Shown in pieces: positions 15,602 through 58,640 of a stretch of 64,000 nucleotides of DNA. The DNA is from Acidocella sp. (GTDB lineage Bacteria; Pseudomonadota; Alphaproteobacteria; Acetobacterales; Acetobacteraceae): contig NZ_DATLPB010000012.1 in assembly GCF_035535915.1 (NCBI RefSeq), positions 988 to 64,987 on the forward strand, given 5' to 3'. The notes beneath the pieces are model-generated. The model did not search any database. It worked only from the letters and a program-made list of their open reading frames with translations, and had not been told where the DNA came from. Made by a program: the position numbers and the translations under genes. Numbering within the stretch: the stretch's first letter is position 1; each line of letters begins with the position of its first letter.

Positions 15602-15643
15602 GCTGTCATAGCTCAGGGGTAGAGCACTTCATTGGTAATGAAG
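15602..15643 (+). repeat. attL core: 42-bp copy of the 5' half of tRNA-Thr(GGT)
   Basis: GCTGTCATAGCTCAGGGGTAGAGCACTTCATTGGTAATGAAG identical to 58566-58607; identity ends exactly after the anticodon stem. Confidence 0.95.
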
Positions 15644-15701
15644 TTCCAGCCCCTTAAATTTTCCCGACAATTCAATCTGTTAGACGATTTTCGCCCGGAT
15701 C

Positions 15702-15722
15702 CTGCACGCATGGTGCACGGAT
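15702..15722. repeat. Putative integrase arm-type site (left)
   Basis: CTGCACGCATGGTGCACGGAT identical to 58446-58466; internal TGCACGSA tandem. Confidence 0.7.
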
Positions 15723-15861
15723 GCGATTTTCGTTGGTCTGCCCCCGCGCCAAAGCGCGGGGGCTAAGCTGCGTCAACAGCTTGAGCCGCGAGCTCGCACT
15801 CGCACGGATGAACCGCCCCGCACCTCCGGCCGGAGGCGGGGTCACAAGACTGGAAACTCTG

Positions 15862-16674
15862 ATGGAGTCAATTCGCGCCACCACGCCCGTCGCCCCGTAT
15901 CTGGGCGGCAAACGCAAGCTCGCCGCCCGTGTCATCCAGCGTCTCTCGGAGATCCGCCACGAATGCTATGTCGAGCCCTTCATCGGCATGGGTGGCATTT
16001 TTCTGCGCCGGCCGTGGCGCGCGGACATCGAGGTGATCAACGATATCAGCACCGACGTCGTGACCCTGTTTCGCATCCTGCAGCGCCATTACGTCGCCTT
16101 CCTCGACATGCTGAAATGGCAGCTAACGAGCCGAGCGGAGTTCGAGCGGCTGCGCCTGGCGGCGCCCGACACGCTGACGGATCTGGAGCGCGCTGCGCGC
16201 TTTCTCTATCTGCAGCGCACCGCCTTCGGGGGAAAGATCGCCGGCCGCACTTTTGGCGTCACCTTGAGCGGCGGGGCGCGGTTTGACATCACCCGGCTCG
16301 CCGCAGTGCTGGAAGACGTTCATGAGCGCCTCGCCGGCGTCGTCATCGAGCGCCTGCCCTATCACGAGCTGATCGCGACCTATGACCGGCCCGCGACCCT
16401 GTTCTATCTGGATCCCCCGTATTGGGGCTGCGAGACCGATTATGGCGAAGGGGTGTTCGCGCCAGCGGATTTCCAGCGCCTGGCCGAGATCCTCGCGGGC
16501 ATCAAAGGCCGTTTCTTGCTCTCCCTCAACGATACGCCGGAGATTCGGGCGATCTTTGCCGCCTTCACGATCGACGCGGTAGAGGTGGGCTATTCGGTCA
16601 ACGGCAAAGCCCAGAGCGTGGCAGGTGAGGTCTTGATCAGCAATCAGGGTGCCGGCGGCTCGTTATTTGGGTGA
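15862..16674 (+). CDS. DNA adenine methyltransferase (Dam/D12 class)
   Basis: PYLGGKRKLA, YVEPFIGMGGIF, NDIS and FYLDPPYW motifs. Confidence 0.93.
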   Translation: MESIRATTPVAPYLGGKRKLAARVIQRLSEIRHECYVEPFIGMGGIFLRRPWRADIEVINDISTDVVTLFRILQRHYVAFLDMLKWQLTSRAEFERLRLAAPDTLTDLERAARFLYLQRTAFGGKIAGRTFGVTLSGGARFDITRLAAVLEDVHERLAGVVIERLPYHELIATYDRPATLFYLDPPYWGCETDYGEGVFAPADFQRLAEILAGIKGRFLLSLNDTPEIRAIFAAFTIDAVEVGYSVNGKAQSVAGEVLISNQGAGGSLFG

Positions 16675-16714
16675 GTGCGTCCCCTTGGGTGGTTGTTGCA
16701 GATTCTGCAACAAC

Positions 16715-17122
16715 TCATTTGGCGACCATCTCCCACTGGTCCGCATCAATGTCCGGCTTCTTCCATCCGATCACCAACCCATCGCCGCCGATCTTCATGA
16801 TGATATAGTCGCCGTACCCGTTATCGTTGACGCACAGAATGGAGTTAGGGACATAATATCCCTTCCACTTAGCCAGACCTGCGCCAGAGGCATCAAGCAA
16901 CCAATACCGGCCGTCGTCGCAGACCTTATAGTGAATATCCGCCGTGGTTCCGGGCGGCCAGTCGATAACGCGCCCCGTTTCCAATTCGATGACCGGGCAC
17001 CATGCATCTCTCTTGCGGCGAGGTATGTTGCCATCCTCGTCAACTTCACCGTTTAGAGTGGAGCCCTCCCAGTAGCGCACGCCAGCCTCTACCTCGATAT
17101 AGCGGGCTCTCTCGATGCTCAT
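16715..17122 (-). CDS. Phage hypothetical protein
   Basis: 135-aa ORF, coupled by ATGA overlap to the upstream gene. Confidence 0.75.
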   Translation of the reverse strand: MSIERARYIEVEAGVRYWEGSTLNGEVDEDGNIPRRKRDAWCPVIELETGRVIDWPPGTTADIHYKVCDDGRYWLLDASGAGLAKWKGYYVPNSILCVNDNGYGDYIIMKIGGDGLVIGWKKPDIDADQWEMVAK

Positions 17123-17319
17123 GGTGTGGACTGCCTCTCCTTGATAGCCTCGTTCAGCAGATCGCGTATCTGGACAAGATCATCTCCCGTCACGATCACA
17201 GAAGCATCCTCATTGTAGGCGAAGGTCACGCCGAAGCGGCCTATGCGAGAGACGACGAGAGTTTCGCGCTCTCCGCTCATGTTGCACGGGAAACTGAGTT
17301 TCGTTGATGTTTCGCTCAT
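17119..17319 (-). CDS. Phage hypothetical protein
   Basis: 66 aa, flanked on both sides by the 23-bp junction repeat. Confidence 0.7.
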   Translation of the reverse strand: MSETSTKLSFPCNMSGERETLVVSRIGRFGVTFAYNEDASVIVTGDDLVQIRDLLNEAIKERQSTP

Positions 17320-17618
17320 GGTATGGACTGCCTTTCATCGAGCATGACTATCTTGCAACCTTCCCTCTGCGGTGCGCGGGCGACCCAGCTCTGCTCGAAC
17401 TCGGCGATCTCCTCCGGCGTCAGCCGGCGCGCCATTACGACCGCCATCTGTGGCGGAAGCACCGTACCATATAGCGCTTTCGTATAGGCGGCGATGGCAT
17501 TGGCTATACGCTCTGATTTGGTCGGTTCGCTGTAGCGCTCCAGATCAAAATCGCAATCGAAGGCTTCCTCTGCCAGGCGCAGCGCCTCGGTATGCATTTC
17601 CTCGGGCGTCATGCTCAA
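17316..17618 (-). CDS. Phage hypothetical protein
   Basis: TTG start with GAGG RBS; ends ERQSIP; 4-bp overlaps. Confidence 0.7.
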   Translation of the reverse strand: MSMTPEEMHTEALRLAEEAFDCDFDLERYSEPTKSERIANAIAAYTKALYGTVLPPQMAVVMARRLTPEEIAEFEQSWVARAPQREGCKIVMLDERQSIP

Positions 17619-17887
17619 TTCTGGACCTCATTTGTCACCTGGCGCTCGATGATACGAGCGAAGTAATAGGGCACCTGTTCGATTGCGATCGTCGAGGTAA
17701 CTATGGTTCCACCCCCATCCCGGCCGACCACGGGATCTGCGTCGATTATCTTGGTCGCCTCGACGGCTTCTTGCAGTGAAACGTCGCTCAGGTCAGGCAT
17801 CGTGAAGCAGCCGAGCCCGTTGATAACGAAATAGCCGGCGCACAGGCGCCGATTGATATCTAGGGCACGCTTGCGGGTCATGCTCAT
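17615..17887 (-). CDS. Phage hypothetical protein
   Basis: 90 aa; 4-bp overlaps at both ends. Confidence 0.65.
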   Translation of the reverse strand: MSMTRKRALDINRRLCAGYFVINGLGCFTMPDLSDVSLQEAVEATKIIDADPVVGRDGGGTIVTSTIAIEQVPYYFARIIERQVTNEVQN

Positions 17888-18063
17888 GTGATGTCCTTTG
17901 TGTCAGGGATAATCGCATCAACCCAAGTCACAAAGCGCGCTATGCATTCATCGCGATCTTTGCGCCATTCGTCGGCAGTGAAGCCGGTAAACCATTTCTT
18001 GGTTCCATCCGGGCTTTCGGCCTGGACGGAGATGGATTTTGGGCGCTTGTCGCTTTCACTCAT
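17884..18063 (-). CDS. Phage hypothetical protein (59 aa, not in the ORF track)
   Basis: Manual translation MSESDKRPKSISVQAESPDGTKKWFTG...DTKDIT; ATGA overlaps at both ends. Confidence 0.7.
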   Translation of the reverse strand: MSESDKRPKSISVQAESPDGTKKWFTGFTADEWRKDRDECIARFVTWVDAIIPDTKDIT

Positions 18064-18434
18064 GATACGGACTGCCTCTCATGTTTTTGGGCCTCAAGCC
18101 CGGTCGCGAATAGAAGGCCGACATCCAGCTTCCCGGTTGCTTCGAGCATGCATTGCGCCATGACTTTCATGGACTCGTACACTCGCTCTCCGGGCTGCGG
18201 GACTTTGATTTCTTCCTCTGGTGCCGCCCACCCCATCAACTTGTGCTTAAAGAAGTCGCCCATCCTGGCCGCTACGGAACAGTTGGCCTTATCCTTGCCG
18301 TAGGTTGTCACATGCTCGCCGTGCGGCTCATGAGCTTCGCCAACCCGGCGAGCGATCACTACCACCTGGTCATAGCCGTATTCGTCAGCAATAATCTTCG
18401 CGGCTTTGATCGGTATGCGCTTCATTCGGCTCAA
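18060..18434 (-). CDS. Phage hypothetical protein
   Basis: 124 aa (YGYDQVVVIARR...HVTTYG); ends ERQSVS. Confidence 0.75.
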   Translation of the reverse strand: MSRMKRIPIKAAKIIADEYGYDQVVVIARRVGEAHEPHGEHVTTYGKDKANCSVAARMGDFFKHKLMGWAAPEEEIKVPQPGERVYESMKVMAQCMLEATGKLDVGLLFATGLEAQKHERQSVS

Positions 18435-18784
18435 TTGTTTTCTCCGTCTGTCAGGGCGCGCCGGTCAATCTCCGCGACAAGCGCGGCCTTGGCCAGGCGT
18501 ATGGACACCTCATCAAGTCCTGTGATCTTTGCTGCGCGCTTATAGGCCGCATCATCCAACTCCCTTGGCATCAGCACGCTGTCAGACGCGGCGAGGTAGG
18601 CATCGATGGCGGCGCGGATGACCTTTCGAAGATTAAGGCGACCGTCGATAACGACCTCGGTTAGGTCATCGTCAGGCGTAAGGCTGTCGCCAGTCGGGCC
18701 TGCAATGAAGCAGTCCCCGTCGCGTTCGATCTCGGCAACCGCAGCCCGCGCCGCGCGCTCGATTATGGTCGGGATGCCGCTCAT
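18431..18784 (-). CDS. Phage hypothetical protein
   Basis: MSGIPTIIERAAR...; start lies in junction repeat 4. Confidence 0.7.
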   Translation of the reverse strand: MSGIPTIIERAARAAVAEIERDGDCFIAGPTGDSLTPDDDLTEVVIDGRLNLRKVIRAAIDAYLAASDSVLMPRELDDAAYKRAAKITGLDEVSIRLAKAALVAEIDRRALTDGENN

Positions 18785-18990
18785 GGTGTGGACTGCCTTC
18801 CTTTTTTCATCGCCTGCCCTTCGGCCCAAACCTGCTTGAAGTGATCAAGCAGGCCGGCGCCGGCAAGATAGGTTTCCATATGATCGACATACTCAAGCAC
18901 GGCAGTGATGTCGCGCTTTAGGGATCGGCTAATATCGTTTTCCTCGTCGGTCATGACAGTCTCGCGCAAACCATCTAGAATTTCGCTCAT
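18781..18990 (-). CDS. Phage hypothetical protein
   Basis: 69 aa; ends GRQSTP; coupled to the resolvase-like gene. Confidence 0.7.
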   Translation of the reverse strand: MSEILDGLRETVMTDEENDISRSLKRDITAVLEYVDHMETYLAGAGLLDHFKQVWAEGQAMKKGRQSTP

Positions 18991-19595
18991 GATTTTGCCT
19001 TTCTACCAAAAATAGGTTGATCGCGCGGCCCGAGCTTCCGATAGGCCGTGGACGGGCTGATCCCGATCTTCGCCGCGGCGGCATTGCCGGTCAGCGCCGG
19101 GTCCAGCCAGATCGCCAGCGCGGCCTCCTTGGCCTTCCCCGTGAGCTTCGTAGGCGTGCCGCCCAGGCGGCCGGTTTCAGCCCGCCGGACGCGCGCCTTG
19201 GCCAGCGCAAAGCTGCGGGTCAGTGTCTCGGCCCGGTTGCAGAAATCCACCACAGCCAGCGCCTCAGGGCTCCACGGTATGGCCTGCCCTGTGCTGGCAT
19301 CGAACACCGCGCCCTCGCGCCTGCCGATGGCCTGCAGCACCTCGAAGACCGCACCACGCGAACCGCCCAGGACTGCCGGCGATGCCACGGCAAGCTCATC
19401 GCCCGGTCGCATGGCGCGCAACGCCTCGGCCAGATCGGGCCGAGGTTCGGCGCCAGACTTTCGCCGCTTCTGGGCACGGTCACACCACACGGGGCCTTCG
19501 TCGCTAAAGTCATCGATGCCCGCGCCGCGCAGCGCCTCCTTCTGCTCTTTGAGGCTTGGCAAACCCGGCGCTTCGTTCATGTATCCTAGTCGCAC
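18987..19595 (-). CDS. Serine resolvase-like protein with C-terminal HTH; canonical catalytic residues absent
   Basis: GTG start MRLGYMNEAPGLPSLKEQKEALRGAG; RPDLAEALRAMRPGDELAV; GGTPTKL; C-terminal AAAKIGISPSTAYRKL. Confidence 0.8.
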   Translation of the reverse strand: MRLGYMNEAPGLPSLKEQKEALRGAGIDDFSDEGPVWCDRAQKRRKSGAEPRPDLAEALRAMRPGDELAVASPAVLGGSRGAVFEVLQAIGRREGAVFDASTGQAIPWSPEALAVVDFCNRAETLTRSFALAKARVRRAETGRLGGTPTKLTGKAKEAALAIWLDPALTGNAAAAKIGISPSTAYRKLGPRDQPIFGRKAKS

Positions 19596-19652
19596 TATCT
19601 CGCACCTGTTGTCATGTTGACAGAATGACATAACAGATGATAGATTGCAATC

Positions 19653-19895
19653 ATGATCAAGCTCACCACCCATGCCGAAGAAATGATTGCCGACCGGGGC
19701 ATCGCCCTGGCATGGGTTGTGAGCGCGATCGAGGCCCCGGACTCCCGCGCCGTTGACCCGCGCGACCCGAGCCTGACCCGTTCTTATCGGAAGATTTCTG
19801 AGGCTGATGGGCGTATTCTCCGGGTTGTTCATCGCCCGGATGGTGCCGATATTCTGGTGATCACGGCGTTTTTTGATAGAGGAATGAAGCTATGA
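19653..19895 (+). CDS. DUF4258-like putative toxin (RelE-like)
   Basis: LTTHAEEMIADRGI...LRVV...LVITAFFDR; ATGA overlap with the next gene. Confidence 0.8.
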   Translation: MIKLTTHAEEMIADRGIALAWVVSAIEAPDSRAVDPRDPSLTRSYRKISEADGRILRVVHRPDGADILVITAFFDRGMKL

Positions 19896-20086
19896 TCTCG
19901 ACCAACTACGACCCCGAAGCGGACGCCCTCTATGTGCAGATCGCGCCAAAGGGAACGCCGGTTGCAGAGACCCGCGAGATTGAACCGGGCGTGATCCTGG
20001 ACGTTGACGCTAAGGGCTCCGTCATCGGTATCGAGGTGTTGGGCGTGCGCGCTCGGTCCGCTGGTACGCCGGCTGCCGCTGCCTGA
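19892..20086 (+). CDS. DUF2283-like putative antitoxin
   Basis: YDPEADALYV...GVILDVDAKGSVIGIEVLG. Confidence 0.85.
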   Translation: MISTNYDPEADALYVQIAPKGTPVAETREIEPGVILDVDAKGSVIGIEVLGVRARSAGTPAAAA

Positions 20087-20261
20087 TTCCGCTAAGTGAG
20101 GCGACGGAAGCCGGTAGGAGATAATCCGGCCCTGCTCACCGAATCGAGGGGTGGCTACGCACAGCAAGCCGAAAGGTTGTCCCGCTGCCAACGTCACAAT
20201 GCCACAGCGATAGTCCATGACTGCAGCCGCACTATCTGCCGTCGCCTCGCTTAGCTGAATC
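20085..20261 (+). other. 177-nt element closed by a 23-bp imperfect inverted repeat (candidate structured RNA or MITE)
   Basis: GATTCCGCTAAGTGAGGCGACGG (20085-20107) pairs with CCGTCGCCTCGCTTAGCTGAATC (20239-20261); internal hairpins. Confidence 0.6.
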
Positions 20262-20287
20262 GAGTCCCACAACTGCCCGGAGCCGAC

Positions 20288-20599
20288 ATGGTAACTCTTA
20301 CGGACGTCAGGAACATGACCCTCTGCCAGCCGGGCGTAATCGGCGCGCGAGTTTCTGACGAGACGGCCAGGTGCATCACGGTCGAAGTATGGCTTGAAGA
20401 GGAAGCCGCAATCGAGCGCTTGCGGCAGACCTACTACAACAATTTACCTCTCGGCATTTCGCCAACTGTCCGCATTATGGATGGCCCCGTGCCTGCCGAT
20501 GCGCTGCCGTCTCGGCGCGATCTTCCGGCGCCTTACATCGATGTGGCTGCTGAACCCGGGCACCAGATCGCGATCAGCGGCCCTCCTGAATCCTCCTAA
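20288..20599 (+). CDS. Hypothetical protein
   Basis: 103 aa; GGAG RBS; no recognised motif. Confidence 0.55.
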   Translation: MVTLTDVRNMTLCQPGVIGARVSDETARCITVEVWLEEEAAIERLRQTYYNNLPLGISPTVRIMDGPVPADALPSRRDLPAPYIDVAAEPGHQIAISGPPESS

Positions 20600-20606
20600 T
20601 CCCCGA

Positions 20607-20657
20607 GCTACTTTTTGTGAGCAAAAAGTAGCAAAAAACTTTTTAAAACTTTTCTTT
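20607..20657. repeat. Partial host palindromic repeat (copy D) inside the prophage
   Basis: GCTACTTTTTG-TGAG-CAAAAAGTAGC-AAAAAACTTT matches the left module of copies A, B and E. Confidence 0.85.
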
Positions 20658-20709
20658 CACATTGCGTCTCTGCACGCGAATCCCACGAACAAAAAGACTA
20701 CCCGGGCGT

Positions 20710-21843
20710 CTATGCCTCTTTCCGAACCGGCCCGGCCGGCGTGCCGGCGAGGAACGCTTCGATCTGTGGCCGGTAGGCATCCGGCATTTTGTGCGCGTAG
20801 ATCTCGACCTGGTCGACGCTCTGCCAGCCGCCTTCGTTGCGCAGCAGCAGCAGGTCCTTGTGCAGGCAATAATGCCAGGTGGCCCAGGTGTGGCGCATGT
20901 CGTGCGGGGTGAATTCAGAGGTCCAGCGGCGCTTCGGTTTTCCTGTGACGCGGTGCTTGTACTCAACCCACTGGCCGGGCAGGCCGGCATGGCGGCAGGC
21001 GATCGCCCAGCCGGTCTTGATCTGCCCGCCGGCCTGGCGGTCATTGTTGTGATAGGCAGCGGCCTTGATCACTACCCTGCCAGCCTTGTTGCGGACTTCT
21101 CGGGTCAAAAACACATTGCCGCAGCGGTGCGGAATCGCGCTCAAGCTGGCGATCGCCGCCGGCGGCAGGTCGTAATGGCGTTCACGGCCGTTCTTGGTAT
21201 CGCGGAACACAACGCGGCCAGCGAATAGATCAACGTCCTCCCACTGCAGCTCGAGCGCCTCGGAAAGGCGTGCCCCGGTGAATAGGCAGAAGGCCAGCAG
21301 CGGGCGCAGATGCGGCGCCGCATGCTGGATCAGCGACGTCGCCTGGTCGGGGCGTAGGAAGGCCACACGAGAAGGCGGCTGGACGGGGATGTCGAATTTC
21401 GGGACGTCGCACCATTTGCGCTTGGCGGCATGGTTGAGCACGGCGCGCAGCGGGGCGAGCACGGTGCGCAATTTGTTGGCGTTGGACGCGTTCGCCGGCA
21501 GCAGTACCTGGTAGGCACGGTCGAGCGCTTCCTGGTCGATCTTGTCGAGTGTCGTGGTCTTGAAATGCAGCAGCAATGCCTTGAGGCGCTTCTGATCGGG
21601 TTCGGACGGCTGATGCGCCTGAATGAAGGCGGTTACGGCGCGTGGGAAGGGGACCGCAGCCTTGGTGCCAAAGACACTACTTTGCCAGAGCTCGGCCTCG
21701 CGGAGCGCGCAATAGGCTTTGGCTTGCTCGGGGTCAGCAGTGCCAGTGCTTTCGTAAACTCGCTGTCCGCGGACGGTGCCGCGGGCATAGAAGACGGACG
21801 TGCCAGGGCGCTTGACGGCTTTGATGCCTGTTGATCCGGGCAT
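20710..21843 (-). CDS. int: Tyrosine recombinase (phage integrase)
   Basis: FTGARLSEAL (R), DTKNG (K), HDMRHTWAT (HxxR), GGWQS...VEIYAH (Y); GGAGAG RBS. Confidence 0.95.
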   Translation of the reverse strand: MPGSTGIKAVKRPGTSVFYARGTVRGQRVYESTGTADPEQAKAYCALREAELWQSSVFGTKAAVPFPRAVTAFIQAHQPSEPDQKRLKALLLHFKTTTLDKIDQEALDRAYQVLLPANASNANKLRTVLAPLRAVLNHAAKRKWCDVPKFDIPVQPPSRVAFLRPDQATSLIQHAAPHLRPLLAFCLFTGARLSEALELQWEDVDLFAGRVVFRDTKNGRERHYDLPPAAIASLSAIPHRCGNVFLTREVRNKAGRVVIKAAAYHNNDRQAGGQIKTGWAIACRHAGLPGQWVEYKHRVTGKPKRRWTSEFTPHDMRHTWATWHYCLHKDLLLLRNEGGWQSVDQVEIYAHKMPDAYRPQIEAFLAGTPAGPVRKEA

Positions 21844-22213: not shown

Positions 22214-23059
22214 TCAAGAGACTTTCCTAAGAAGGCTTCGCGCTCTGTGTGGCGGCGGATAATTGCTGATGGCGACCTCGGTCTGGAGACTATTGGTCAG
22301 GCTGCGCACACTATAATTGGCGTGGTGCCAGTCGCGCAGGATGTCGGAATAGACAGTACCTCGTGCCATTGTGATCAGGACGCGACACCGCACATCTCTG
22401 AGGGCCCTGGCGAGTTCCTGATGCTCCTCATCGGTCATATTGACCGCATACATAGTCTCGTGGCCGTTCAGCGTATGACGCGGATAGGGGGGGTCGAGGA
22501 ACAGCAGAGCCTCGGCTTGATCGGCGAAGGCGGCGACCAGATTGATGATGTGTCGCCGATGGATATGGCAGCGGCGAAGCCGTTGCGCGACGGACACCAA
22601 CCGATCTGGAATGCCGATCCAAGTGGTGCTGAGCGACGAGCGTCCTTTATCAAGTCGCCAGCTGGCACGCCGATGTTGCTTGCCGCCGAAGCTCATCCAG
22701 GACGCGACCAGAAATTGCCATGCACGAAGAGTGGGATCTGGCGCCTGATCGGCGTCGCTGGACCAGACGAGGTCTCTGCATGTGATGAACTCTTCCTGCG
22801 CGTATGGGGTCATCTCGACCATGCGACATAATTTTGCCAATTCATCATCATCGCGCAAAACACGGAAGAGATTGACCACGTCGCCGTTCGCATCGTTTAG
22901 ATGTTCGGCTGGATGCGGAGGCTTTGCCAGTGTCATGGCCGCTGTTCCAGCAAAACCCTCCACCCACACGGCCGCGTCCATGGGAAGAAAAGGCAGAAGT
23001 TCTTCAGCAACGCGTGCCTTACTGCCGAATTGCCTATGAGCTGTCGACACGCCCATCAC
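22214..23059 (-). CDS. Second DNA adenine methyltransferase (Dam/D12 class)
   Basis: FGSK, VEGFAGTAA, LNDANGDVVNLFRVLRD and FLDPPY motifs. Confidence 0.9.
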   Translation of the reverse strand: MMGVSTAHRQFGSKARVAEELLPFLPMDAAVWVEGFAGTAAMTLAKPPHPAEHLNDANGDVVNLFRVLRDDDELAKLCRMVEMTPYAQEEFITCRDLVWSSDADQAPDPTLRAWQFLVASWMSFGGKQHRRASWRLDKGRSSLSTTWIGIPDRLVSVAQRLRRCHIHRRHIINLVAAFADQAEALLFLDPPYPRHTLNGHETMYAVNMTDEEHQELARALRDVRCRVLITMARGTVYSDILRDWHHANYSVRSLTNSLQTEVAISNYPPPHRARSLLRKVS

Positions 23060-24474
23060 GACACCTCGAAGCAGCCATTGCCGCCCTGCTCTTCATGCGT
23101 GAGCATGGCTGCGCGCGGCGAGTTGGGGTTTGTGCACACATGGAACTCGGCCGGCGCCGAGTAGTTGAGGAGCTGACGGAATTTGCAGCCGTCGAAGCAA
23201 AATTTCTGCCCTTCCTGGCGCTCTTCGTTAGGGGGATAGTCGGTCGGCAGTTTGGGGGTCAGCGCGTGGAAACGTGCAATCTCGGCGTTGGCCCTCTCCG
23301 CGCGTTCAAGCTGCGCTGCTTTCTGCTTGGCCTTATAGTCGGAAGTGTCGAATCTTTTTGGATCTTCCTTGGGCTTCGTCAGAAGCCCCTCATGGATCGT
23401 GACGTCATAAGACGACTTGTTGATGACGATGAACGCGCCAGCGCCATTCGCTTTGGTCTGGCCCGTCAGATACTCCCATGAGTTGAAGCGCTCGCCAGGC
23501 TCCAACACCGTCACGAAAGCCCACTTTTTTTTCAAGGCTTTGGCTTTGGCCTGTACTGCTTCCATCTGCAGCGCGATCGCCGCCTTGCGGTCGGCAAAGT
23601 ATCTGCTGCCCTCAATCTCGACCAGCTCGAGGGCAGACGCCTCGACATCGAACAGCGCGTCTTCTACGTCGATCAGCGTGCCGCGCAGTTCGTACGTGAT
23701 ATCCTCGACAGAGATCTTTCCCGACTCATCATAATCGTCCGTCGCGCGGTCGAGGATATCGACCTGGATGTCAGCAGGCGCGGTGGTCAGCAGCCGCGCC
23801 GCCTCAATGGTTATCTTGCCAGAGGTCAGAGCCTCGCGTGCGGCCGGCGCGAGCTTGTTAGCCAATGCCAGGCGCTGGTACACATAGCGCGGCGTGCGGC
23901 CGATCTTCATGGCGATCGCCTGGGCGGTCCAGGTTTTGGGGTCGATCCGCTGCAGCTGCACGAAGGCATCGGCTTCCTCGAGCGGCGCCACGTCCTGTCG
24001 CTGCAGGTTTTCCAGCAAAGCCAGTGCAAGGTGCGTGCCGTCATCTGCCTCGATCACGCGGCAGGGAAGGGGCTGGCCCCAACGGGCTTGGTCTATTAGC
24101 AGGCCGATTGCGCGATACCGGCGCTCGCCCGCCACAAGGATATAGCGGCCCTCTGGCCCAGCGCGAACCACGAGATTCTGCAACAGGCCGTTCACGGCGA
24201 TGCTCTCGGCCAGCTCCTCGAGTTCGGTCTGGTCGAACGTCTTGCGCGGGTTCAGGCTGGAACGGTCGATCAGATCATAATCGACCAGGCTTATGCCGGT
24301 GTCATTGGCAGCAGCGACGGCGGGGACATTCAGCATGACGAGCGCTTTCTTGATGCTGGTGCGGTTCAGGTTGAATTCCGCCGCCAGCATGTCTTGTGTG
24401 ATGGCTGGATCTGCGCGCTTGCGCGCGCAGATCGCCTGGATCACCTCTTCGGTCAGCTTGGGAACAGCAGCCAT
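23056..24474 (-). CDS. ParB/Spo0J-like protein with extra N-terminal HTH
   Basis: LNPRKTFD, GLLQNLVVR, LVAGERRYRA, ENLQRQDV and central HTH. Confidence 0.9.
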   Translation of the reverse strand: MAAVPKLTEEVIQAICARKRADPAITQDMLAAEFNLNRTSIKKALVMLNVPAVAAANDTGISLVDYDLIDRSSLNPRKTFDQTELEELAESIAVNGLLQNLVVRAGPEGRYILVAGERRYRAIGLLIDQARWGQPLPCRVIEADDGTHLALALLENLQRQDVAPLEEADAFVQLQRIDPKTWTAQAIAMKIGRTPRYVYQRLALANKLAPAAREALTSGKITIEAARLLTTAPADIQVDILDRATDDYDESGKISVEDITYELRGTLIDVEDALFDVEASALELVEIEGSRYFADRKAAIALQMEAVQAKAKALKKKWAFVTVLEPGERFNSWEYLTGQTKANGAGAFIVINKSSYDVTIHEGLLTKPKEDPKRFDTSDYKAKQKAAQLERAERANAEIARFHALTPKLPTDYPPNEERQEGQKFCFDGCKFRQLLNYSAPAEFHVCTNPNSPRAAMLTHEEQGGNGCFEVS

Positions 24475-26636: not shown

Positions 26637-26993
26637 TTAAAGCCGATTGTTGTCCGTGTTCACAGCCGTGTATTGCAGCTCTTCGCTCAATTCCGGGTGC
26701 TGAACCAATAGGGCCGCCGCCAAAGCCCGGTGGCATCCCGAAACGTCGGCTCTGAAAATATAATCCATCGTCACATGAAACCGGCGGCAGAAAGCCACAA
26801 GAATATAGGGGTCGGGCGACCTGTCGCCGGCTTCCCATTTTTGCCACGCCGCCTGATTTAGGCCGAACAACTTCGCCGTCTCAGTTTGGCCTAGATTGGC
26901 GTATTCGCGCACCCAGCGGATGCGGTTTCCGACGCCTTCCATATATGCGCGAGGGGTCTTTCGGGCGGTTTTCGGCATGGGGTTCTGTAACAT
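26637..26993 (-). CDS. CI-like XRE HTH repressor (short, no peptidase domain; alternative start 26978)
   Basis: VGNRIRWVREYANLGQTETAKLFGLNQAAWQKWEAGDRSPD; divergent from cro; flanked by operators. Confidence 0.85.
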   Translation of the reverse strand: MLQNPMPKTARKTPRAYMEGVGNRIRWVREYANLGQTETAKLFGLNQAAWQKWEAGDRSPDPYILVAFCRRFHVTMDYIFRADVSGCHRALAAALLVQHPELSEELQYTAVNTDNNRL

Positions 26994-27013
26994 TACGGCC
27001 TCTGCAACGTCGA

Positions 27014-27055
27014 ACTCCAAAATGGATTGCGAAATAATCCAATCTGGATTATTTG
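27014..27055 (+). promoter_or_regulatory. PR/OR: two 15-bp operators and rightward promoter
   Basis: ACTCCAAAATGGATT (27014), AATCCAATCTGGATT (27036); TTGCGA-N17-TATTTG ending 7 nt before the cro ATG. Confidence 0.75.
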
Positions 27056-27062
27056 GCGTGTC

Positions 27063-27314
27063 ATGGGCCATGCTGAAATCATCAAACGACTCGGTACAGA
27101 AAACGTGAGAAAATGGACGGGCGCCACGGCCGCCAACATCTCGCACTGGCGCGCGCGGGGTATTCCTTCGCGGTTTTGGGCCATAATTGTCGAAAAATCG
27201 GCGATGCTCGGCGTCGATCTGGCGGTATCCGCGTCCGATCTTCAGGACGGTTACGCTGGTAAGCGCAAACTTCCCGGAGCCGAGTCGGATGCGATTCGCC
27301 GACGCGCAGCATGA
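27063..27314 (+). CDS. Cro-like HTH regulator
   Basis: IIKRLG...ANISHWRARGIPSRFWAII; divergent from cI. Confidence 0.75.
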   Translation: MGHAEIIKRLGTENVRKWTGATAANISHWRARGIPSRFWAIIVEKSAMLGVDLAVSASDLQDGYAGKRKLPGAESDAIRRRAA

Positions 27315-27420
27315 GCAACCTTTCGATGGAATCAACCGTTCGCATGGAGATGCTTGTCCTCCTTTGCGCCGCAACAGTCACCCGGATTTAGTCCGGAGGT
27401 CAAACGATTTGGAGGATTAT

Positions 27421-28864: not shown

Positions 28865-29136
28865 TGAACGATAAACTCCAAGAGGATGTCGCTAAACTCT
28901 CTGCCGCCGCGCAGAGGATTGTCGCGGGTGTCAGGGCTGCTTCGCCTGGGGTTGCGGATATTTACCTCTACCAGGCTTTAGCCGTCGCCGCCGGAATCAT
29001 CCTGGCTGACGCGCTGTATCCGGAAATGCCGACGGTCGCGGGGTCAAATGCTGCGGTGTTTCTCGTGGCTGGCGTGCAGTTCGGCAGGGAACGCCGCACC
29101 GAAGCAGAAAAAGCAAGTTGCCACGGTGTTGCATGA
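28864..29136 (+). CDS. Phage hypothetical protein
   Basis: 90 aa; overlaps neighbours. Confidence 0.6.
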   Translation: MNDKLQEDVAKLSAAAQRIVAGVRAASPGVADIYLYQALAVAAGIILADALYPEMPTVAGSNAAVFLVAGVQFGRERRTEAEKASCHGVA

Positions 29137-30644
29137 GCGACGTGTTCAATGTGATGCGCATTCCGCCGAGCAACGTCCCGGCGGAGCAGGCGCTGCTGGG
29201 GGCGCTGCTGGCGAATAATAAGGCGTTCGAGAGCGTTGCTGAATTTCTGCTGCCGCATCATTTTGCCGACCCGGCCAACGCCCGGGTCTACGGCGCAATC
29301 GCCAGCAGGATCGCGGCTGGGCAGGTTGCTGATCCGGTCACGCTCAAGGCGGAGTTTGAGCATGCGGCCGAACTGGATGCTGTTGGCGGTCTATCCTATT
29401 TGGGTAAGCTGCTCGCTTCCATGATTGGGATCATCAACGCTGGGGATTATGGCCGTGCGGTGCATGACGCCTGGTTGCGGCGCGAACTGATCGCGGCCTG
29501 CACCGAGGCTATCAATCAGGCTTACGTGCCGACCGGGGTTAGTGGTCAGGAGGTACTTGAGGAACTGGATGGCGCGCTGACACGCGTCGCGGACGGCGCG
29601 GGCGAGGTCAAGCCGCTTTCGACAGCCGGTGATGCTGTGTCGCGGGCAGTAGTACTCTCGACCGAAGCGGGCGAGCGCGACAGTGCGCTGGCCGGTCTCA
29701 CCACGGGGTATGCGGCGCTCGATCGCCTGACGGCCGGACTGATGCCGGGGCAGATGTATCTGCTCGGCGCGCGCCCGGCGATGGGTAAGACCGGGCTTGG
29801 GCTCGGGATCGCTGCGCGCGCCGCCAGTCATGGCGCCAAGGTCCTGATGTGGTCTGGTGAGATGGATGCGCCGCAGCTCGGCACGCGTCTTGCTGCCGCG
29901 CATTCGGGCATAGAGGTTGCTTCGGTGTTTCGTGGCAAGGGCTGGGAAATGCCGCCTGATCATGGTGGCAGACCTGTCTCGCGGAAACTGACGATGGATG
30001 AGGGGAATCGTCTCGTGCGCGCCGGGCGCGATGCGTATCGCCTACCGCTCAATTTCGACGATCGACCTGGTTTGACGGTCGCGGGCTTACGTGCCCGCGC
30101 GCGGCGCATGAAGCGCGGCAAGGGGCTCGATCTGATCGTGGTCGACTATATCGCCTTGATGCGCGCGACCGCCGCGGCGGAAAAGCAGAAGCTTTATGAG
30201 CGGATGACTGAATTGAGCCGGGATCTACGCATCTTGGCGGCGGAACTTCATGTTCCGATCCTGGTTCTTGCGCAGTTGAACCGCGCCAATGAAAGTCGCG
30301 AGAATAAAATGCCGCAGCTCTCCGATCTGCGTGATACCGGCGCGCTGGAACAGGACGCTTATTGCGTGATGTTTCTGCATCGCCCGCATTATTACCTGAT
30401 GCAGGCTGGCGAACCCGTCCGGGCCCAGAAAGAAAGCGCCGAGGCGTTCCAGGAACGCTCGGATCTCTGGCACCATCAGGTCGAGTCAACGCGCGGCCTG
30501 GCGCTCGTCTCGATCGCGAAAAACCGTAATGGGCCGACCGGAATCTGCCGTCTGCGCTTCGACGCGGAGACGATCTGGTTTCGGGATGAGTCTGAGGCTG
30601 ACAATGAAGCTGCCTGGGGCAGCGCTTTTCTGGGGGATGCGTAA
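29133..30644 (+). CDS. DnaB-like replicative helicase
   Basis: AEQALLGALL, GARPAMGKT (Walker A), IVVDY, LAQLNR and SDLRDTGALEQDA motifs. Confidence 0.95.
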   Translation: MSDVFNVMRIPPSNVPAEQALLGALLANNKAFESVAEFLLPHHFADPANARVYGAIASRIAAGQVADPVTLKAEFEHAAELDAVGGLSYLGKLLASMIGIINAGDYGRAVHDAWLRRELIAACTEAINQAYVPTGVSGQEVLEELDGALTRVADGAGEVKPLSTAGDAVSRAVVLSTEAGERDSALAGLTTGYAALDRLTAGLMPGQMYLLGARPAMGKTGLGLGIAARAASHGAKVLMWSGEMDAPQLGTRLAAAHSGIEVASVFRGKGWEMPPDHGGRPVSRKLTMDEGNRLVRAGRDAYRLPLNFDDRPGLTVAGLRARARRMKRGKGLDLIVVDYIALMRATAAAEKQKLYERMTELSRDLRILAAELHVPILVLAQLNRANESRENKMPQLSDLRDTGALEQDAYCVMFLHRPHYYLMQAGEPVRAQKESAEAFQERSDLWHHQVESTRGLALVSIAKNRNGPTGICRLRFDAETIWFRDESEADNEAAWGSAFLGDA

Positions 30645-39971: not shown

Positions 39972-39997
39972 CCCCGAACCCACCGGAGCATCTTTCC

Positions 39998-42343: not shown

Positions 42344-42346
42344 ACA

Positions 42347-44643: not shown

Positions 44644-46341
44644 ATGGCTAAGGTCTACGAATCAGTTCTGGCAGTGGTCGACAAATGGTCGGCGCCGATT
44701 CTCAAGATGGAAGAGAATCTGAAGCACCTTGGCGCCGTCGGGGCGCACACCAACAAGATGATGACGCCGCACGAGAAACTGTTTTCGCACGCTACCGAAG
44801 GCATTCATGAACTGACGGACCGTTTCGGTGAATTCGGAAAGCAGGCTGGCGAAGTCGGCAGCAAGATCGGCGAGATTCTGGGGCCGCTCGCAGCGCTTGG
44901 CGCCGCGGGCTCAGTCGCCGGACTGGTGGAGATGACGCATAGTTTTGCCGAGGCGACCGAGCAGCTCTCGATCGGGGCGCGTATCGCCGGCATTTCTGTC
45001 CAGAGCATGCAAGCACTGAATTATGCGGCATTGCAGACGGGCGTGTCGACGGATGGCATGCAGCGCTCGATGGGTATGCTCAACCGCGTCATGGGTGCGG
45101 CGGCCACGGGGCAGAATAAGCAGGCCCTGGCGCTATTTCAGCACCTGCATATCGCGCTGCGCAACTCGCACGGCCAGATCCTTGGAGCTGCGGATGTGCT
45201 GCCGAAACTGGCCGATGCCTTCGCGAAAACCAGCAGCCCAGCCATGAAGGCCTTGATGGCGCAGCAGCTGTTCGGTCGCGCGGGCCTTGAGCTTCTGCCG
45301 ATGCTGGAGCAGGGCAGTGCTGGCCTCGCGAAATATCAGGACGCCTTCCAAAAATACGGCTACACGCTCAGCGAACAGGACGTTTCCGCGGCAGAGAAGT
45401 TCAACGAGTCGTGGAAGAATATGCAGACCTCGATCTCCGGTCTGACGGACGATATCAGCGCCAAGCTTGCGCCAGTCTTGACGCCGATCATTACTGCCGT
45501 CGCCGACTGGACGGCCGCCAATCGGGATTGGATCGCCACCAACGTCCAGAAGGCCATCGCAAGCCTTTCCGACACGCTCTCCCAGGTTGATTTCAAGGGC
45601 GTTCTCTCCGGTGCCATGCAGTTCGCGGATAGCACGGGAAAACTCGTCGATGACCTGGGGGGGCTGAAGACCGTGATGATCGGTGCAGCCGTGGTGATGG
45701 GCGCGCCTTTTCTGGCACCGCTTGCCAGCCTCGCGACTGGCTTCGCGCGGCTCAGCTTTGCCGTTGCTGGTCCAATCGTGAAGTCCATCGCAATGTTTGG
45801 CTTCGAACTGGTCGAATTGGTGCCGGCGATGACATCGGTCCGCAACGCCATGGCGGCGCTGGATCTGGTGATTTCGGCCAATCCCCTTGGCGCCATCGCC
45901 ATCGCCGCCATCGCGGCAGGTGCCGCGGCCTATGAGCTGTATGAGCACTGGAACACGGTCGCGAAGGAACTTGGCGCGGTCTGGGGTGTGATCGATAGCG
46001 GGTTCCATCGCGTGTTCGACCCGATCGGCAATACGATCGGCGGACTCGAATCGCGGCTAACGTCCTTCACCTCCATGTTGGGGATGGGCGGCGGGCATGG
46101 TGCGGCACACGGCGGCGCCCCGACGAGCACCTCCAATGCCGCCAGCGGCGCGCTGCCGTGGCTGCCGCCCAGCGCGCCTCTGGCTGTGCCCGGCGCAGCC
46201 GGCGACAGCAGCAAGCTCGACGTCACGATCCATATTCCGGCGGCGCCAGCCGGGACGCGCGCGGTGGTGCAGAGCAGTGGTTCGGCACCCAAACCGAAGG
46301 TCAATCTCGGTCACTCCAGCATGGCGACGGGCGTCCTATGA
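44644..46341 (+). CDS. Tape measure protein
   Basis: 565 aa, Ala/Gly/Leu-rich helical; LFGRAG motif; follows the chaperone. Confidence 0.85.
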   Translation: MAKVYESVLAVVDKWSAPILKMEENLKHLGAVGAHTNKMMTPHEKLFSHATEGIHELTDRFGEFGKQAGEVGSKIGEILGPLAALGAAGSVAGLVEMTHSFAEATEQLSIGARIAGISVQSMQALNYAALQTGVSTDGMQRSMGMLNRVMGAAATGQNKQALALFQHLHIALRNSHGQILGAADVLPKLADAFAKTSSPAMKALMAQQLFGRAGLELLPMLEQGSAGLAKYQDAFQKYGYTLSEQDVSAAEKFNESWKNMQTSISGLTDDISAKLAPVLTPIITAVADWTAANRDWIATNVQKAIASLSDTLSQVDFKGVLSGAMQFADSTGKLVDDLGGLKTVMIGAAVVMGAPFLAPLASLATGFARLSFAVAGPIVKSIAMFGFELVELVPAMTSVRNAMAALDLVISANPLGAIAIAAIAAGAAAYELYEHWNTVAKELGAVWGVIDSGFHRVFDPIGNTIGGLESRLTSFTSMLGMGGGHGAAHGGAPTSTSNAASGALPWLPPSAPLAVPGAAGDSSKLDVTIHIPAAPAGTRAVVQSSGSAPKPKVNLGHSSMATGVL

Positions 46342-50745: not shown

Positions 50746-51350
50746 CAAACACCATCGCCGGTCTCGGCGCGGCCGATTTTCTGAGTGGTGGGCAAGGATT
50801 GCTGCCGCCAGGTGATGCGCTGCCCCGAGATGTTGAGGCGTTGCTGACGACGCTGCTGTCCGGTCTCACCGGTCGCATGGTCGACGTGCATGCTCAGGCA
50901 TCCTTGCTCAGTGAGATCGAGAGCGACCCACGTGAGACGACGCTGCTGCTGCCAGATTGGGAAGCGAGCTTTGGTCTACCGGATCCGTGCCTGGGCGCGA
51001 GTCCGTCTTACGCGCAGCGCCGTCAGCAGCTGGTGTCGCGTATCGCCGCTCGGGGTGGCCAGAGCCCGGACTATATGATCAGCGTCGCGGCGACGCTGGG
51101 CTATCCGATTACCATTACGCAATTTCGGCCGTTCACATTCGGTCAGCCCTTCGGTTCGCTGATGTACGGACAGCCTTGGGCCTACGTCTGGCAGGTCAAC
51201 GCACCGACTTTCACGGTCGATTTCTTCGAATTTGGCCAGAACAATTTCGGCGATTCTTTCTCGAGCTTCGGCAACACGGCTCTGCAGTGTGAACTGCAGC
51301 GCATTTGCCCGGCCCATACCCAGCTTCTCTTCTCCTTCTCCCAGGGGTAA
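50742..51350 (+). CDS. Mu gp48/YmfQ-like baseplate protein
   Basis: LLPPGDA, LLPDWE, GGQSPDY, PAHT motifs. Confidence 0.88.
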   Translation: MTNTIAGLGAADFLSGGQGLLPPGDALPRDVEALLTTLLSGLTGRMVDVHAQASLLSEIESDPRETTLLLPDWEASFGLPDPCLGASPSYAQRRQQLVSRIAARGGQSPDYMISVAATLGYPITITQFRPFTFGQPFGSLMYGQPWAYVWQVNAPTFTVDFFEFGQNNFGDSFSSFGNTALQCELQRICPAHTQLLFSFSQG

Positions 51351-51352
51351 CC

Positions 51353-52513
51353 ATGGACGCGATCATTGCACCAAACACCGTTCCGCTTTCTGAGGCAGAT
51401 GGACCTCCCGCCACGGGCACACCGCAATATGCGGTAAACGGAGTGCCTGGGTCGACGGTGCCGACGCAGTTCCCGGCGTACCATTACAATGGGATTGTCC
51501 AGGAAATTTTAGCCCTGCAGGGGGGTGCCGGCCTTACGAATAATCGGCAGGCTCTGAACCAGGTATTGCAGGCGGTTAAAAGATTTGCCGGAGGAAATGT
51601 CACCACGGTCACCGCCAGCGCCACACTCACGGCCGATAATGCCGGCCTGGTGCTGGTGAACGCGGCGGACAGCAACATCACGATCACGATGCCGGCCGCC
51701 GCTAGTGCGAATGGAATTCCGCTCTCCTTCAAGATCATCCGTACCGACACGAGCGCAAACACGGTCACCTATGCGCTGGCAGAAAATGATACCATCCTTC
51801 CTACGGGGTCGACCGGTGGATCGATTGGCAATGGCTTGGGGGCCGACCTGATCGGCGATGGCATCTCGCATTGGTGGCAGCCGGGCTCTGGGCGGCTCAT
51901 TAGCGTGGAAACGTTCAATGCTTCGGGCGTTTACAATGCCCCTCCTGGAACGAAATTCGTCATAGTCAATGCCAAAGGCGGGGGTAGCGCGGGGGGTGGT
52001 GCGCCGGCGTGCTCCACGGGTGCCACGTCAATCGGATCGGGCGGTACGGAAGGCACTTATGCGAGCGGGATCTATGCCGAAGGTTTTAACGGCGTTGCAG
52101 TTACTGTAGGCGCCGGCGGCACGCCAGTGGCTGGGGGGACTGGCAGCCCTGGCGGGGCGTCATCGTTCGGTGCCCTGCTTACGGCGCCGGGTGGTCCAGC
52201 AGCGCAGATCGCTGGCCCAAGCTCCGCGAGCTTTACCACCGGCGGGATCAATGGGACGCTGGCAAGTGGAGCTAATCTCCTGAACATTGCAGGAGCACCT
52301 GGCGGTGTGTCGCTATCGTTTGGCGGTAGTAACCTCGTATCTTCCTCCGGAGGGGGATCTGGTGCCGGTGCGGCGATATCCGCAGGACAGAATGGCTTCT
52401 CAGCGTCTTCTAACGGAGCCGGCGGCGGTGGCACCGCGCAAATCTCCGGAGGTCCGGCGCTGACCGGAGGCCGTGGCGGAAACGGTTACGTGCAGATTTA
52501 TGCATTCGCGTAA
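51353..52513 (+). CDS. Tail fibre with Gly-rich C-terminal domain
   Basis: Mu-type N-terminal anchor (YNGIVQEI); GGGGAGG-rich C-terminus. Confidence 0.8.
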   Translation: MDAIIAPNTVPLSEADGPPATGTPQYAVNGVPGSTVPTQFPAYHYNGIVQEILALQGGAGLTNNRQALNQVLQAVKRFAGGNVTTVTASATLTADNAGLVLVNAADSNITITMPAAASANGIPLSFKIIRTDTSANTVTYALAENDTILPTGSTGGSIGNGLGADLIGDGISHWWQPGSGRLISVETFNASGVYNAPPGTKFVIVNAKGGGSAGGGAPACSTGATSIGSGGTEGTYASGIYAEGFNGVAVTVGAGGTPVAGGTGSPGGASSFGALLTAPGGPAAQIAGPSSASFTTGGINGTLASGANLLNIAGAPGGVSLSFGGSNLVSSSGGGSGAGAAISAGQNGFSASSNGAGGGGTAQISGGPALTGGRGGNGYVQIYAFA

Positions 52514-56484: not shown

Positions 56485-56557
56485 CAGCTGCCCCTTCAAG
56501 TCATGCGCAGCCTCGGCGGCCTAACTTTCCCCTCACTTATCAAATCAGGAATACGAG

Positions 56558-56824
56558 ATGACCAAAGGGCTCCCCCATGTCGACGTGCCGCCCGAGATGA
56601 TTCCCCGCGACTTGGCCGAAGCGCTCGTTGCGATCGGTCGTCTGCAGGTGATCTGCAAGAATCAGGAGACAAAGCTCACCGAACACGACGCCGAAGTGAG
56701 CAAGCTTAACTCGGTCATCCAGACCGCGAACGGCGTGAAAATCGCGCTGTTCTGGGTGGCAGCCGCCATCCTCGGTGCCACCACGATCTGGTTCAATGTC
56801 GTCAATGGAAAGCCTTGGAAATGA
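56558..56824 (+). CDS. Coiled-coil protein with C-terminal TM
   Basis: 88 aa; hydrophobic IALFWVAAAILGATTIWF. Confidence 0.6.
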   Translation: MTKGLPHVDVPPEMIPRDLAEALVAIGRLQVICKNQETKLTEHDAEVSKLNSVIQTANGVKIALFWVAAAILGATTIWFNVVNGKPWK

Positions 56825-57285: not shown

Positions 57286-57287
57286 TC

Positions 57288-57767
57288 GTGTGCGATCCGG
57301 AAAACATCGCCCTGTTTCTGCCTGACATCACGACAGCGGAATTTCCACCTGACGAAACGGTGGCCGTGTTTGCACCTGATGTCACCGTTGCCCTTTTCCT
57401 CCAGCAATCGGATGCGTCGATGAGCATATTCAATGAGACTCCTGAGATGGTGCTTCTTACCGGCAAAGCACCCTTCACCTCGCGTCAGTACGAACATGAT
57501 TTCTCAAACCAGCTGAAGGCCGGGGATACGATCGCCGCCATCGATTCGGTGATCTCGACGCCGATCGGCGCGCTGCAGCCAGGCCAGGTCAATCTGACGA
57601 TCGGCACCCAGGCGGTGATCGCAGGCAAGAAAGGTGCCGCTCTTGCCGTGGGAACGGTGATTTCCGGCGGCTCCATCGGCGCCAAATACCAGGTCACGGC
57701 CGACATCGTCTCGGCCAACGGCGACCAGGTCAGCCTATCCTTCATCCTGCCCGTGGAGAATCGTTAG
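57288..57767 (+). CDS. Putative fibre-tail adaptor-like beta-sandwich protein
   Basis: YEHDFSNQL..GDTI...ISGGSIGAKYQVT...NGD..SLSFILPV pattern. Confidence 0.5.
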   Translation: MCDPENIALFLPDITTAEFPPDETVAVFAPDVTVALFLQQSDASMSIFNETPEMVLLTGKAPFTSRQYEHDFSNQLKAGDTIAAIDSVISTPIGALQPGQVNLTIGTQAVIAGKKGAALAVGTVISGGSIGAKYQVTADIVSANGDQVSLSFILPVENR

Positions 57768-58295
57768 ATGCTCAGCAATTTCGATGCCTGTTGCGGCTTT
57801 TCGCTGCGTCAGGAGGGTGGTTTTTGTGACGTCAAGGGTGATCCTGGGGGAGCCACGAATCACGGCATCACCATGGCTGAGCTGTCGGCTGTCCTCGGAC
57901 GGCCCGCGACCGTGGACGATGTGCGCAACCTGACCGCGGCTCAGTCCGAGGCTATTTACAAGCCGCGTTATTGGGTCGCGGTGAGTGGTGATGCGCTGCC
58001 GGCCGGCGTGGACCTTGTCGCATTCGATTTCGGGCTCAACGCGGGGCCACGCACCAGTGCGATGCAGCTGCAGGCGCTTATAAAAGTGGAACAGGACGGC
58101 GTCATCGGCCCCGCTACGCTGGCTGCGCTCGCGACGCACGACAGGTCCTGGGTCATCGCGGCGCTGACGCTCAGCCACCAGGCTTACTACCGGCGGCTTC
58201 CGGGCTATGGCGAATTTGGCCCGGGATGGATCGCGCGAACGGTACGATGCCAGGCAGCGGCCGGGGCGATGGTTCCGCATGGAGTGGCGGCATAG
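57768..58295 (+). CDS. Endolysin, glycoside hydrolase family 108 with PG-binding domain
   Basis: EGGF..DPGGATNHGIT, FDFGLNAG, QDGVIGPATLAA and FGPGW motifs. Confidence 0.92.
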   Translation: MLSNFDACCGFSLRQEGGFCDVKGDPGGATNHGITMAELSAVLGRPATVDDVRNLTAAQSEAIYKPRYWVAVSGDALPAGVDLVAFDFGLNAGPRTSAMQLQALIKVEQDGVIGPATLAALATHDRSWVIAALTLSHQAYYRRLPGYGEFGPGWIARTVRCQAAAGAMVPHGVAA

Positions 58296-58445
58296 GATCA
58301 GGCCGCGAGTCGAGCGGCGCGACATTGAAGAATGGGCAGCGGCGAATCGGTGACGTCCCCGGGATGGGACGGGGGTATGCTGGCTCACGAAAGGGTGATG
58401 AACGGCGTTCACAAACGCCGTTCATCGGAACATCCCGAGAACAGA

Positions 58446-58466
58446 CTGCACGCATGGTGCACGGAT
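58446..58466. repeat. Putative integrase arm-type site (right)
   Basis: Identical 21-mer to 15702-15722. Confidence 0.7.
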
Positions 58467-58514
58467 AGGCATGTGAAGTTGCAGTTTTGTACGCAAATTC
58501 GTGATGACGGGCAC

Positions 58515-58543
58515 TTGCGGTCCTACCCCTAAAAGGCTAGGAA
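58515..58543 (+). promoter_or_regulatory. Phage-side promoter candidate for the reconstituted tRNA-Thr
   Basis: TTGCGG-N17-TAGGAA (GCTA extended), 22 nt before the tRNA. Confidence 0.5.
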
Positions 58544-58565
58544 CCGGGCCATCAACCGCGGTTTT

Positions 58566-58640
58566 GCTGTCATAGCTCAGGGGTAGAGCACTTCATTGGT
58601 AATGAAGAGGTCCTGGGTTCAATTCCCAGTGACAGCACCA
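58566..58640 (+). tRNA. tRNA-Thr(GGT), intact; 58566-58607 is the attR core
   Basis: Cloverleaf: acceptor GCTGTCA/TGACAGC, anticodon loop TTGGTAA, TTCAATT T-loop, CCA end. Confidence 0.97.

Follow-up and report, generated by a model that had tools for sequence, protein, structure and literature searches.

The 64,000-nucleotide stretch of Acidocella sp. DNA analysed here (contig NZ_DATLPB010000012.1; the window) contains a complete prophage that is integrated in a tRNA-Thr(GGT) gene in reversed orientation, with the element carrying the 5' part of the gene. The reading that we favor is that a temperate phage integrated by means of a tyrosine integrase, that it displaced the native promoter of the gene, and that tRNA-Thr(GGT) in the lysogen is most likely transcribed from a phage-borne element, TTGCGG-N17-TAGGAA. 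We place the probability of this model as a whole at roughly 0.8.

Structure of the attachment sites

The prophage is bracketed by an exact 42-nt direct repeat, identified by a repeat search of the window at 15602-15643 and 58566-58607, and sequence identity between the two copies ends at both edges of the block. The right copy is the core of the right attachment site (attR) and forms positions 1-42 of a complete tRNA-Thr(GGT) gene (58566-58640, plus strand; ARAGORN), the rest of which is host DNA. The left copy, the core of the left attachment site (attL), is a stub of the same gene on the plus strand and is followed by neither a T-arm nor an acceptor 3' strand. Starting with the acceptor 5' strand, the repeat runs on through the D arm and the entire anticodon stem-loop, and its last base is the end of the 3' stem arm. 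The only other tRNA gene that ARAGORN finds in the window is tRNA-Phe(GAA) in the host flank (58687-58762, plus strand). A preliminary description of this DNA had read the repeat as the tRNA 5' end through the anticodon stem, with the stub on the left and the complete tRNA on the right, and had quoted a promoter motif beside each; the layout stands, and the motifs are present at 15556-15584 and 58515-58543.

Pfam and PHROG matches identify the DNA between the repeats (15644-58565, about 43 kb) as a complete myovirus-like prophage, with a G+C content of 0.56-0.66 that is mostly under the 0.64-0.68 of the left host flank. The left flank encodes hisD-hisG-murA-dcd, and the right flank has tRNA-Phe followed by HU. 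By its dcd protein the host belongs to the Acetobacteraceae, with Acidocella-like metagenome-assembled genomes as the nearest matches. In the closest prophage-free relatives (L001, L002, and L005) dcd is followed divergently, at 270-300 bp, by tRNA-Thr(GGT) and then by tRNA-Phe, and the tRNA-Thr(GGT) of L001 and L002 is identical to that of the window. Upstream of it both of these relatives carry TTGCGT-N17-TATAGG-GGC, which resembles the left flank of the window (15556-15601) and not the phage-side sequence at 58480-58565; the preliminary description had named this comparison beforehand as one that could refute its reading, and it comes out in favor of integration as described. Since the empty sites carry a promoter of the left-flank type, we take the TTGCAC-N17-TATAGG at 15556-15584 (plus strand), which occupies the same place as its counterparts in L001 and L002 and scores 12.5 bits on a host tRNA-promoter matrix described below, to be the native tRNA-Thr promoter. 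This predicted promoter is split from its gene by 43 kb and now faces the 42-nt stub only. We also note that in other relatives (L014, L020, L021, L029, L034, L036, L038, and L043) tRNA-Thr(GGT) is co-directional with and upstream of dcd rather than divergent, and this inversion relative to dcd in several Acetobacteraceae genera indicates that the local gene order is unstable across the family.

The phage counterpart of these junctions is represented by a viral contig, L081 (IMGVR_UViG_3300047178_000060), which encodes an integrase about 64-67% identical to that of the window and contains a stretch 79% identical to window positions 58414-58609. Its contiguous order is endolysin homologue, P arm, promoter, tRNA positions 1-44, P' arm, and integrase gene (int), and by this order it is the intact phage attachment site (attP) predicted from joining the ends of the window prophage. 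A 21-nt sequence, CTGCACGCATGGTGCACGGAT, occurs only twice in the window, at 58446-58466 on the P side and at 15702-15722 on the P' side (both plus strand), with about 0.02 chance matches expected for its 18-nt core, and it recurs on both sides of the L081 core at the same offsets. This direct repeat, which is absent from the preliminary description and holds a TGCAC-N5-GTGCA dyad, fits putative arm-type integrase sites by its position. The exact attL junction sequence had no match when it was searched for in viral contigs.

We propose that the phage attP would begin with a P arm site, continue with a tRNA-type promoter followed by tRNA positions 1-42, and end in a P' arm site, and that the tyrosine integrase would recombine it with the single tRNA-Thr(GGT) gene in reversed target orientation. 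The identity block ends at the anticodon stem-loop, and crossover, together with its putative cleavage positions, most likely falls within this structure. After integration, attL would be composed of the native promoter, the 42-nt stub, and phage DNA, and attR of the phage promoter, phage-supplied positions 1-42, and host positions 43-75, which together would make an intact tRNA. The phage is presumably still able to excise. A quite different explanation, that a tRNA fragment was duplicated locally to give the repeat or that the assembly has joined phage and host contigs artificially, draws on the draft status of the genome, which is in 127 contigs, but we consider it highly improbable: the repeat is exact and precisely brackets the low-G+C phage block, the flanks, when rejoined, give the relatives' gene order, and an independent viral contig contains the attP that was predicted, in which the core and the arm repeats are the same.

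The phage-side promoter candidate

The phage-borne candidate TTGCGG-N17-TAGGAA is at 58515-58543 (plus strand), with its -10 hexamer ending 22 nt short of the mature 5' end of the tRNA. The matrix used to evaluate it was built from 17 host tRNA upstream regions, with tRNA-Thr(GGT) and tRNA-Phe kept out of training, and was limited to the -35 and -10 columns, a version over all 38 columns being too noisy. A TTG-N20-TA pattern whose -10 hexamer finishes 9-22 nt short of the mature 5' end is present in 17 of the 37 usable tRNA upstream regions, and in the correct placement in only 0.3% of random genomic windows. The 58515-58543 site scores 9.7 bits, compared with a leave-one-out range of 5.6-15.9, and is among the top 7e-5 of positions in the genome. 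The promoter hexamers of the window and of L081 are identical at 11 of 12 positions and the 17-nt spacer at 5 of 17, and conserved hexamers over a diverged spacer are the pattern that would be expected for a promoter under selection. The preliminary description had pointed to this motif in the phage DNA ahead of the complete tRNA, and the host-matrix score together with the conservation in L081 makes it credible as a promoter whose activity is presumed.

The same form is found in native genes. TTGC-N17-TAGGAA is the tRNA-Thr(GGT) promoter form in other Acetobacteraceae genera (L003, L021, L029, and L043), and a TAGGTA variant is present in L028, L034, and L069. We considered whether the relatives with TAGGAA-type promoters could themselves be lysogens and rejected this, as the genes beside the tRNA are host genes (TetR-like, FeoB-like, and dcd) in L003, L014, L021, L029, L034, and L043. 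On the simplest reading of these sequences, what the phage carries is a genuine tRNA-Thr promoter together with the gene's first 42 nt, probably taken from an earlier host. Elsewhere, L114, another locus with a tRNA-Thr stub, has CCCGCCTTGCGTTG in three tandem copies, each of which holds a TTGCGT -35-like word, at about 77 nt ahead of the stub, and a TATATC -10-like hexamer stands between this array and the stub.

The draft assembly (3.66 Mb) has 41 tRNA genes, of which one is tRNA-Thr(GGT), and the two codons that this tRNA reads account for 59% of the Thr codons in long open reading frames (ORFs; ACC 56%, ACT 3%). Because a single GGT copy reads this proportion of Thr codons, the gene is almost certainly essential. 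The preliminary description was right to call ACC frequent, and the copy number that it had posed as a question is one in this assembly.

Several points weigh against the model. An Escherichia coli-type promoter scan finds nothing at either junction, so the promoter call rests on the host-specific pattern, and the -10 hexamer TAGGAA departs from the usual form in the absence of a final T. The count of one tRNA-Thr(GGT) is per 127-contig draft, in which a second copy is not strictly excludable, and the integrase gene is 5 kb from attL rather than adjoining it.

The tRNA at attR could instead be made by read-through from the lysis and late genes, or from a phage promoter farther upstream, with 58515-58543 not a working promoter at all. 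The endolysin gene (57768-58295) and its neighbors are on the same strand and directed at the tRNA, and there is no U-tract terminator between the lysis genes and the tRNA. Read-through is possible in lytic growth, but late genes are normally silent in a lysogen, and a tRNA that decodes 59% of Thr codons needs a constant supply. Moreover, a strong 14-bp hairpin without a U-tract (58396-58427, plus strand; -28.1 kcal/mol and z -4.6 for the fold of 58380-58445), a possible insulator or terminator after the lysis gene, stands between the lysin gene and the promoter candidate. The candidate itself matches both host tRNA promoters and native tRNA-Thr promoters, and in L081 its hexamers are kept over a diverged spacer. 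We regard read-through as decidedly unlikely and favor transcription from 58515-58543.

A further proposal, an extension made in the preliminary description, is that the reversed layout does more than keep the host alive and is an adaptation for stabilization or control, in which right-end deletions are lethal and the phage modulates the supply of the tRNA. With the tRNA single-copy in the assembly and ACC so frequent, loss of about 60 bp at attR would probably be lethal, and the layout turns up again in several lineages of integrases. Precise excision, however, gives back the native gene, so the whole prophage is not 'addictive', and only about 4% of tRNA gene (tDNA) islands are in this orientation (PMC4383910), which argues against a strong general advantage. 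As to control, the promoter is free of overlapping operator or regulator sites, its -35 is separated by about 50 nt from the P arm site upstream, and it is of the ordinary native, housekeeping tRNA-Thr type. Phage control of the tRNA combined with a penalty on partial deletion is speculative, and we consider such an adaptive role improbable; the penalty on partial deletion follows as a logical consequence of the layout.

The neighboring tRNA-Phe has a promoter-like element of its own, TTGAAA-N17-TAGGCG (58647-58675, plus strand; 4.9 bits), inside the 46-nt spacer after tRNA-Thr. As this element is conserved in L001, L002, and L005, tRNA-Phe need not rely on the phage, and tRNA-Thr and tRNA-Phe may be separate transcription units.

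Gene content and the left end of the prophage

The integrase gene (20710-21843, minus strand) is transcribed towards attL, and its product matches Pfam PF00589 with an E value of 4e-17 and 62.8 bits (cutoff 27.1). In an eight-sequence alignment the TGAR, HxxR, and Y motifs are invariant, as are R192, H314, R317, and Y349, which identifies it as a tyrosine recombinase. Between the P' arm and int there are about 5 kb of cargo (15644-20700), comprising a methyltransferase gene, small minus-strand ORFs, and an ORF that weakly matches the DNA-invertase family phrog_125. The minus-strand ORFs are linked by a repeated 20-nt junction at 17117, 17314, 18058, and 18779. The corresponding interval is 1.2 kb in the L081 attP and less than 100 nt in L088 and L114, and because it is so much shorter in these relatives the cargo looks like an insertion beside attP.

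The methyltransferase is of the D12 class of N6-adenine DNA methyltransferases (15721-16674, plus strand; Pfam PF02086, E 7e-23, matching from ORF residue 60, with a likely start at ATG 15862). The orphaned native promoter points through the stub into this same-strand, Dam-like gene (15556-16674), and between the stub and the methyltransferase there are only G+C hairpins without U-tracts, one of 10 bp predicted by folding at 15740-15763 (plus strand), ahead of the likely start, and another at about 15816-15841. The gene would be behind a tRNA-Thr promoter in the lysogen and in the free phage alike. The idea that integration provides it with a promoter missing in the free phage was considered and rejected, as attP has a phage-borne promoter at the same upstream place.

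To the right of int, the minus strand encodes a ParB-like protein (23056-24474; Pfam PF02195 and PF17762) and a helix-turn-helix protein that is a repressor candidate (26637-27374; Pfam HTH_31 and HTH_3). The remaining assigned genes are all on the plus strand, beginning with a DnaB-type replicative helicase (29118-30644; Pfam PF03796, E 8e-69), a gpA-type terminase large subunit (33487-35637; Pfam PF20454 and PF05876), a portal protein of the lambda family (35969-37639; Pfam PF05136, E 1e-83), and a major capsid protein E (39878-41035; Pfam PF03864, E 2e-79). The tail genes include a sheath (42347-43846), which scores 30.8 bits with PF04984, just under the cutoff of 31.4, and 29.8 bits with PF17482 (cutoff 26.9), a tape measure protein (44644-46341; phrog_2276, E 2e-46), and a tail fibre protein (51305-52513; Pfam and PHROG matches). 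The last phage gene before attR is the GH108 endolysin gene noted above (Pfam PF05838 and PF09374), a homologue of which adjoins attP in L081.

Target orientation and relation to known systems

The integrase was aligned with eight relatives, metagenome contigs were scanned, and the piece of tRNA beside each int was catalogued. The 3' half of a tRNA is on the int strand at 40 loci, a full tRNA or 3' half is on the opposite strand at 14, and a 5' half is present at four (the window, L081, L088, and L114), in each case from tRNA-Thr(GGT). Across the integrase family the identity blocks have either their start at tRNA positions 24-32 (the 3' type) or their end at 42-44 (the 5' type), and the two types overlap in the anticodon stem-loop only. 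In most members of the 3'-half type, as well as in L088 and L114, the block begins about 70-100 nt past the int stop codon, with its anticodon-stem end first. The 7-nt loop on the int strand is TTGGTAA in canonical Thr users (e.g. L103) and TTACCAA in reversed ones, and, to judge from these loops, the core in the reversed members is flipped about the dyad of the anticodon stem, a flip which requires that the other half of the tRNA gene be carried. A boundary of the identity block at the anticodon stem is a likeness to the canonical anticodon-loop tRNA integrases, which reportedly constitute the class A that Williams distinguished in 2002 and correspond to site A of Islander, a sublocation in which the inverted-repeat arms of the stem-loop flank an overlap of 7 nt. 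Four other metagenome contigs (L150, L153, L165, and L171) have a complete tRNA gene 17-47 nt past the int stop codon on the same strand, and these represent either a whole tRNA copy in attP or reversed-type attR junctions with a promoter inside int.

In a tree of the integrases, the window and L081 group together (100/100) among canonical Gly, Thr, and Val users, and L088 and L114 belong to a separate well-supported clade that also holds canonical members. Parsimony gives two changes of orientation, and the well-supported branches alone force one. We raise as a tentative possibility that this alphaproteobacterial integrase family has flipped orientation more than once, each time capturing a host tRNA-Thr promoter and 5' half, and that these phages form a guild on whose DNA the transcription of the host's single, heavily used tRNA-Thr(GGT) depends. 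If this were so, the attR-proximal phage DNA would be undeletable, and it may persist as a 'native' promoter after the prophage has decayed.

Stubs of the same tRNA recur in other viral genomes. A scan of IMG/VR for the tRNA-Thr(GGT) 5' half gave 80 loci, of which 13 were judged to be true stubs, ending at about positions 36-44, and at 11 of these a tyrosine integrase gene (25-64% identical) follows on the opposite strand. L253 differs in having its int upstream, on the strand of the stub, and the L237 contig ends before any int is visible. One viral contig holds both a stub (L193) and a full gene (L250), the upstream region of which matches the attP-type stubs L182 and L243. In another Acetobacteraceae genome, a contig from a metagenome-assembled genome (L031, CAXSHI010000345.1) has two tRNA-Thr(GGT) 5' stubs on the minus strand, starting at 778 and 585 and thus 193 bp apart. 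Both are upstream of dcd and have a separate promoter-like element apiece, and they look like the stacked scars of successive reversed integrations.

Reversed-orientation tDNA islands are said to have been described by Zhao and Williams in 2002 (J Bacteriol 184:859). Of the 3,919 islands in Islander, 159 have a 5' tDNA fragment and 3,760 a 3' fragment (PMC4383910), and 5'-distal recombination is considerably less frequent (PMC6563490, where Zhao & Williams 2002 is cited). The preliminary description implied a greater rarity than these 159 islands and the repeated use of one tRNA in viral contigs bear out. The arrangement itself is already known as a documented minority class, and the window is a well-resolved further case. 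Its value is that of a clean, fully bracketed example of this mode of tRNA integration in a little-studied host family, in which an element-supplied promoter candidate can be read from the sequence along with the arm repeats, the empty site, and the attP of a relative. It suggests that a host's only tRNA for its commonest Thr codon can pass to phage-borne transcription signals that resemble a borrowed native promoter. This should be of use to tools that call prophage boundaries and in considering att-site change, and it leaves knowledge of integration itself unchanged.

The window has the arrangement of the reversed-orientation island class, with the 5' fragment upstream of the intact gene and in the same orientation, the integrase gene in between, and beside the fragment a flank that is the native upstream region by comparison with the empty sites. 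It shares with these islands an element that carries the tRNA 5' part, a displaced 5' fragment that keeps the native promoter, and a regenerated gene behind element DNA, which must supply the transcription signals. It differs in the Acetobacteraceae host, in the use of tRNA-Thr(GGT) by a complete myovirus-like prophage, and in that an element-supplied promoter candidate, apparently of the native tRNA-Thr type, can be identified. The closest cultured relative, Acetobacter phage phiAX1 (LC644973), has an integrase of the same tyrosine integrase family with 50% identity, but it carries a canonical tRNA-Val(GAC) 3' half after int on the int strand, whereas the window phage carries a 5' half on the opposite strand. 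The pTN3-like archaeal integrases likewise use the 5' half of a tRNA gene, according to the part of PMC8371274 that summarizes Cossu et al. 2017. In these Thermococcales systems attB is the tRNA 5' half, as in the window, and element DNA drives expression of the recombinant tRNA (PMC8371274), as would most likely be the case in the window. However, the pTN3-like integrases are 'suicidal', with a gene that spans attP, and the tRNA is said there to be expressed from the integrase promoter (PMC8371274), whereas the window phage has an intact int situated at the other junction and carries a dedicated promoter candidate of the tRNA type.

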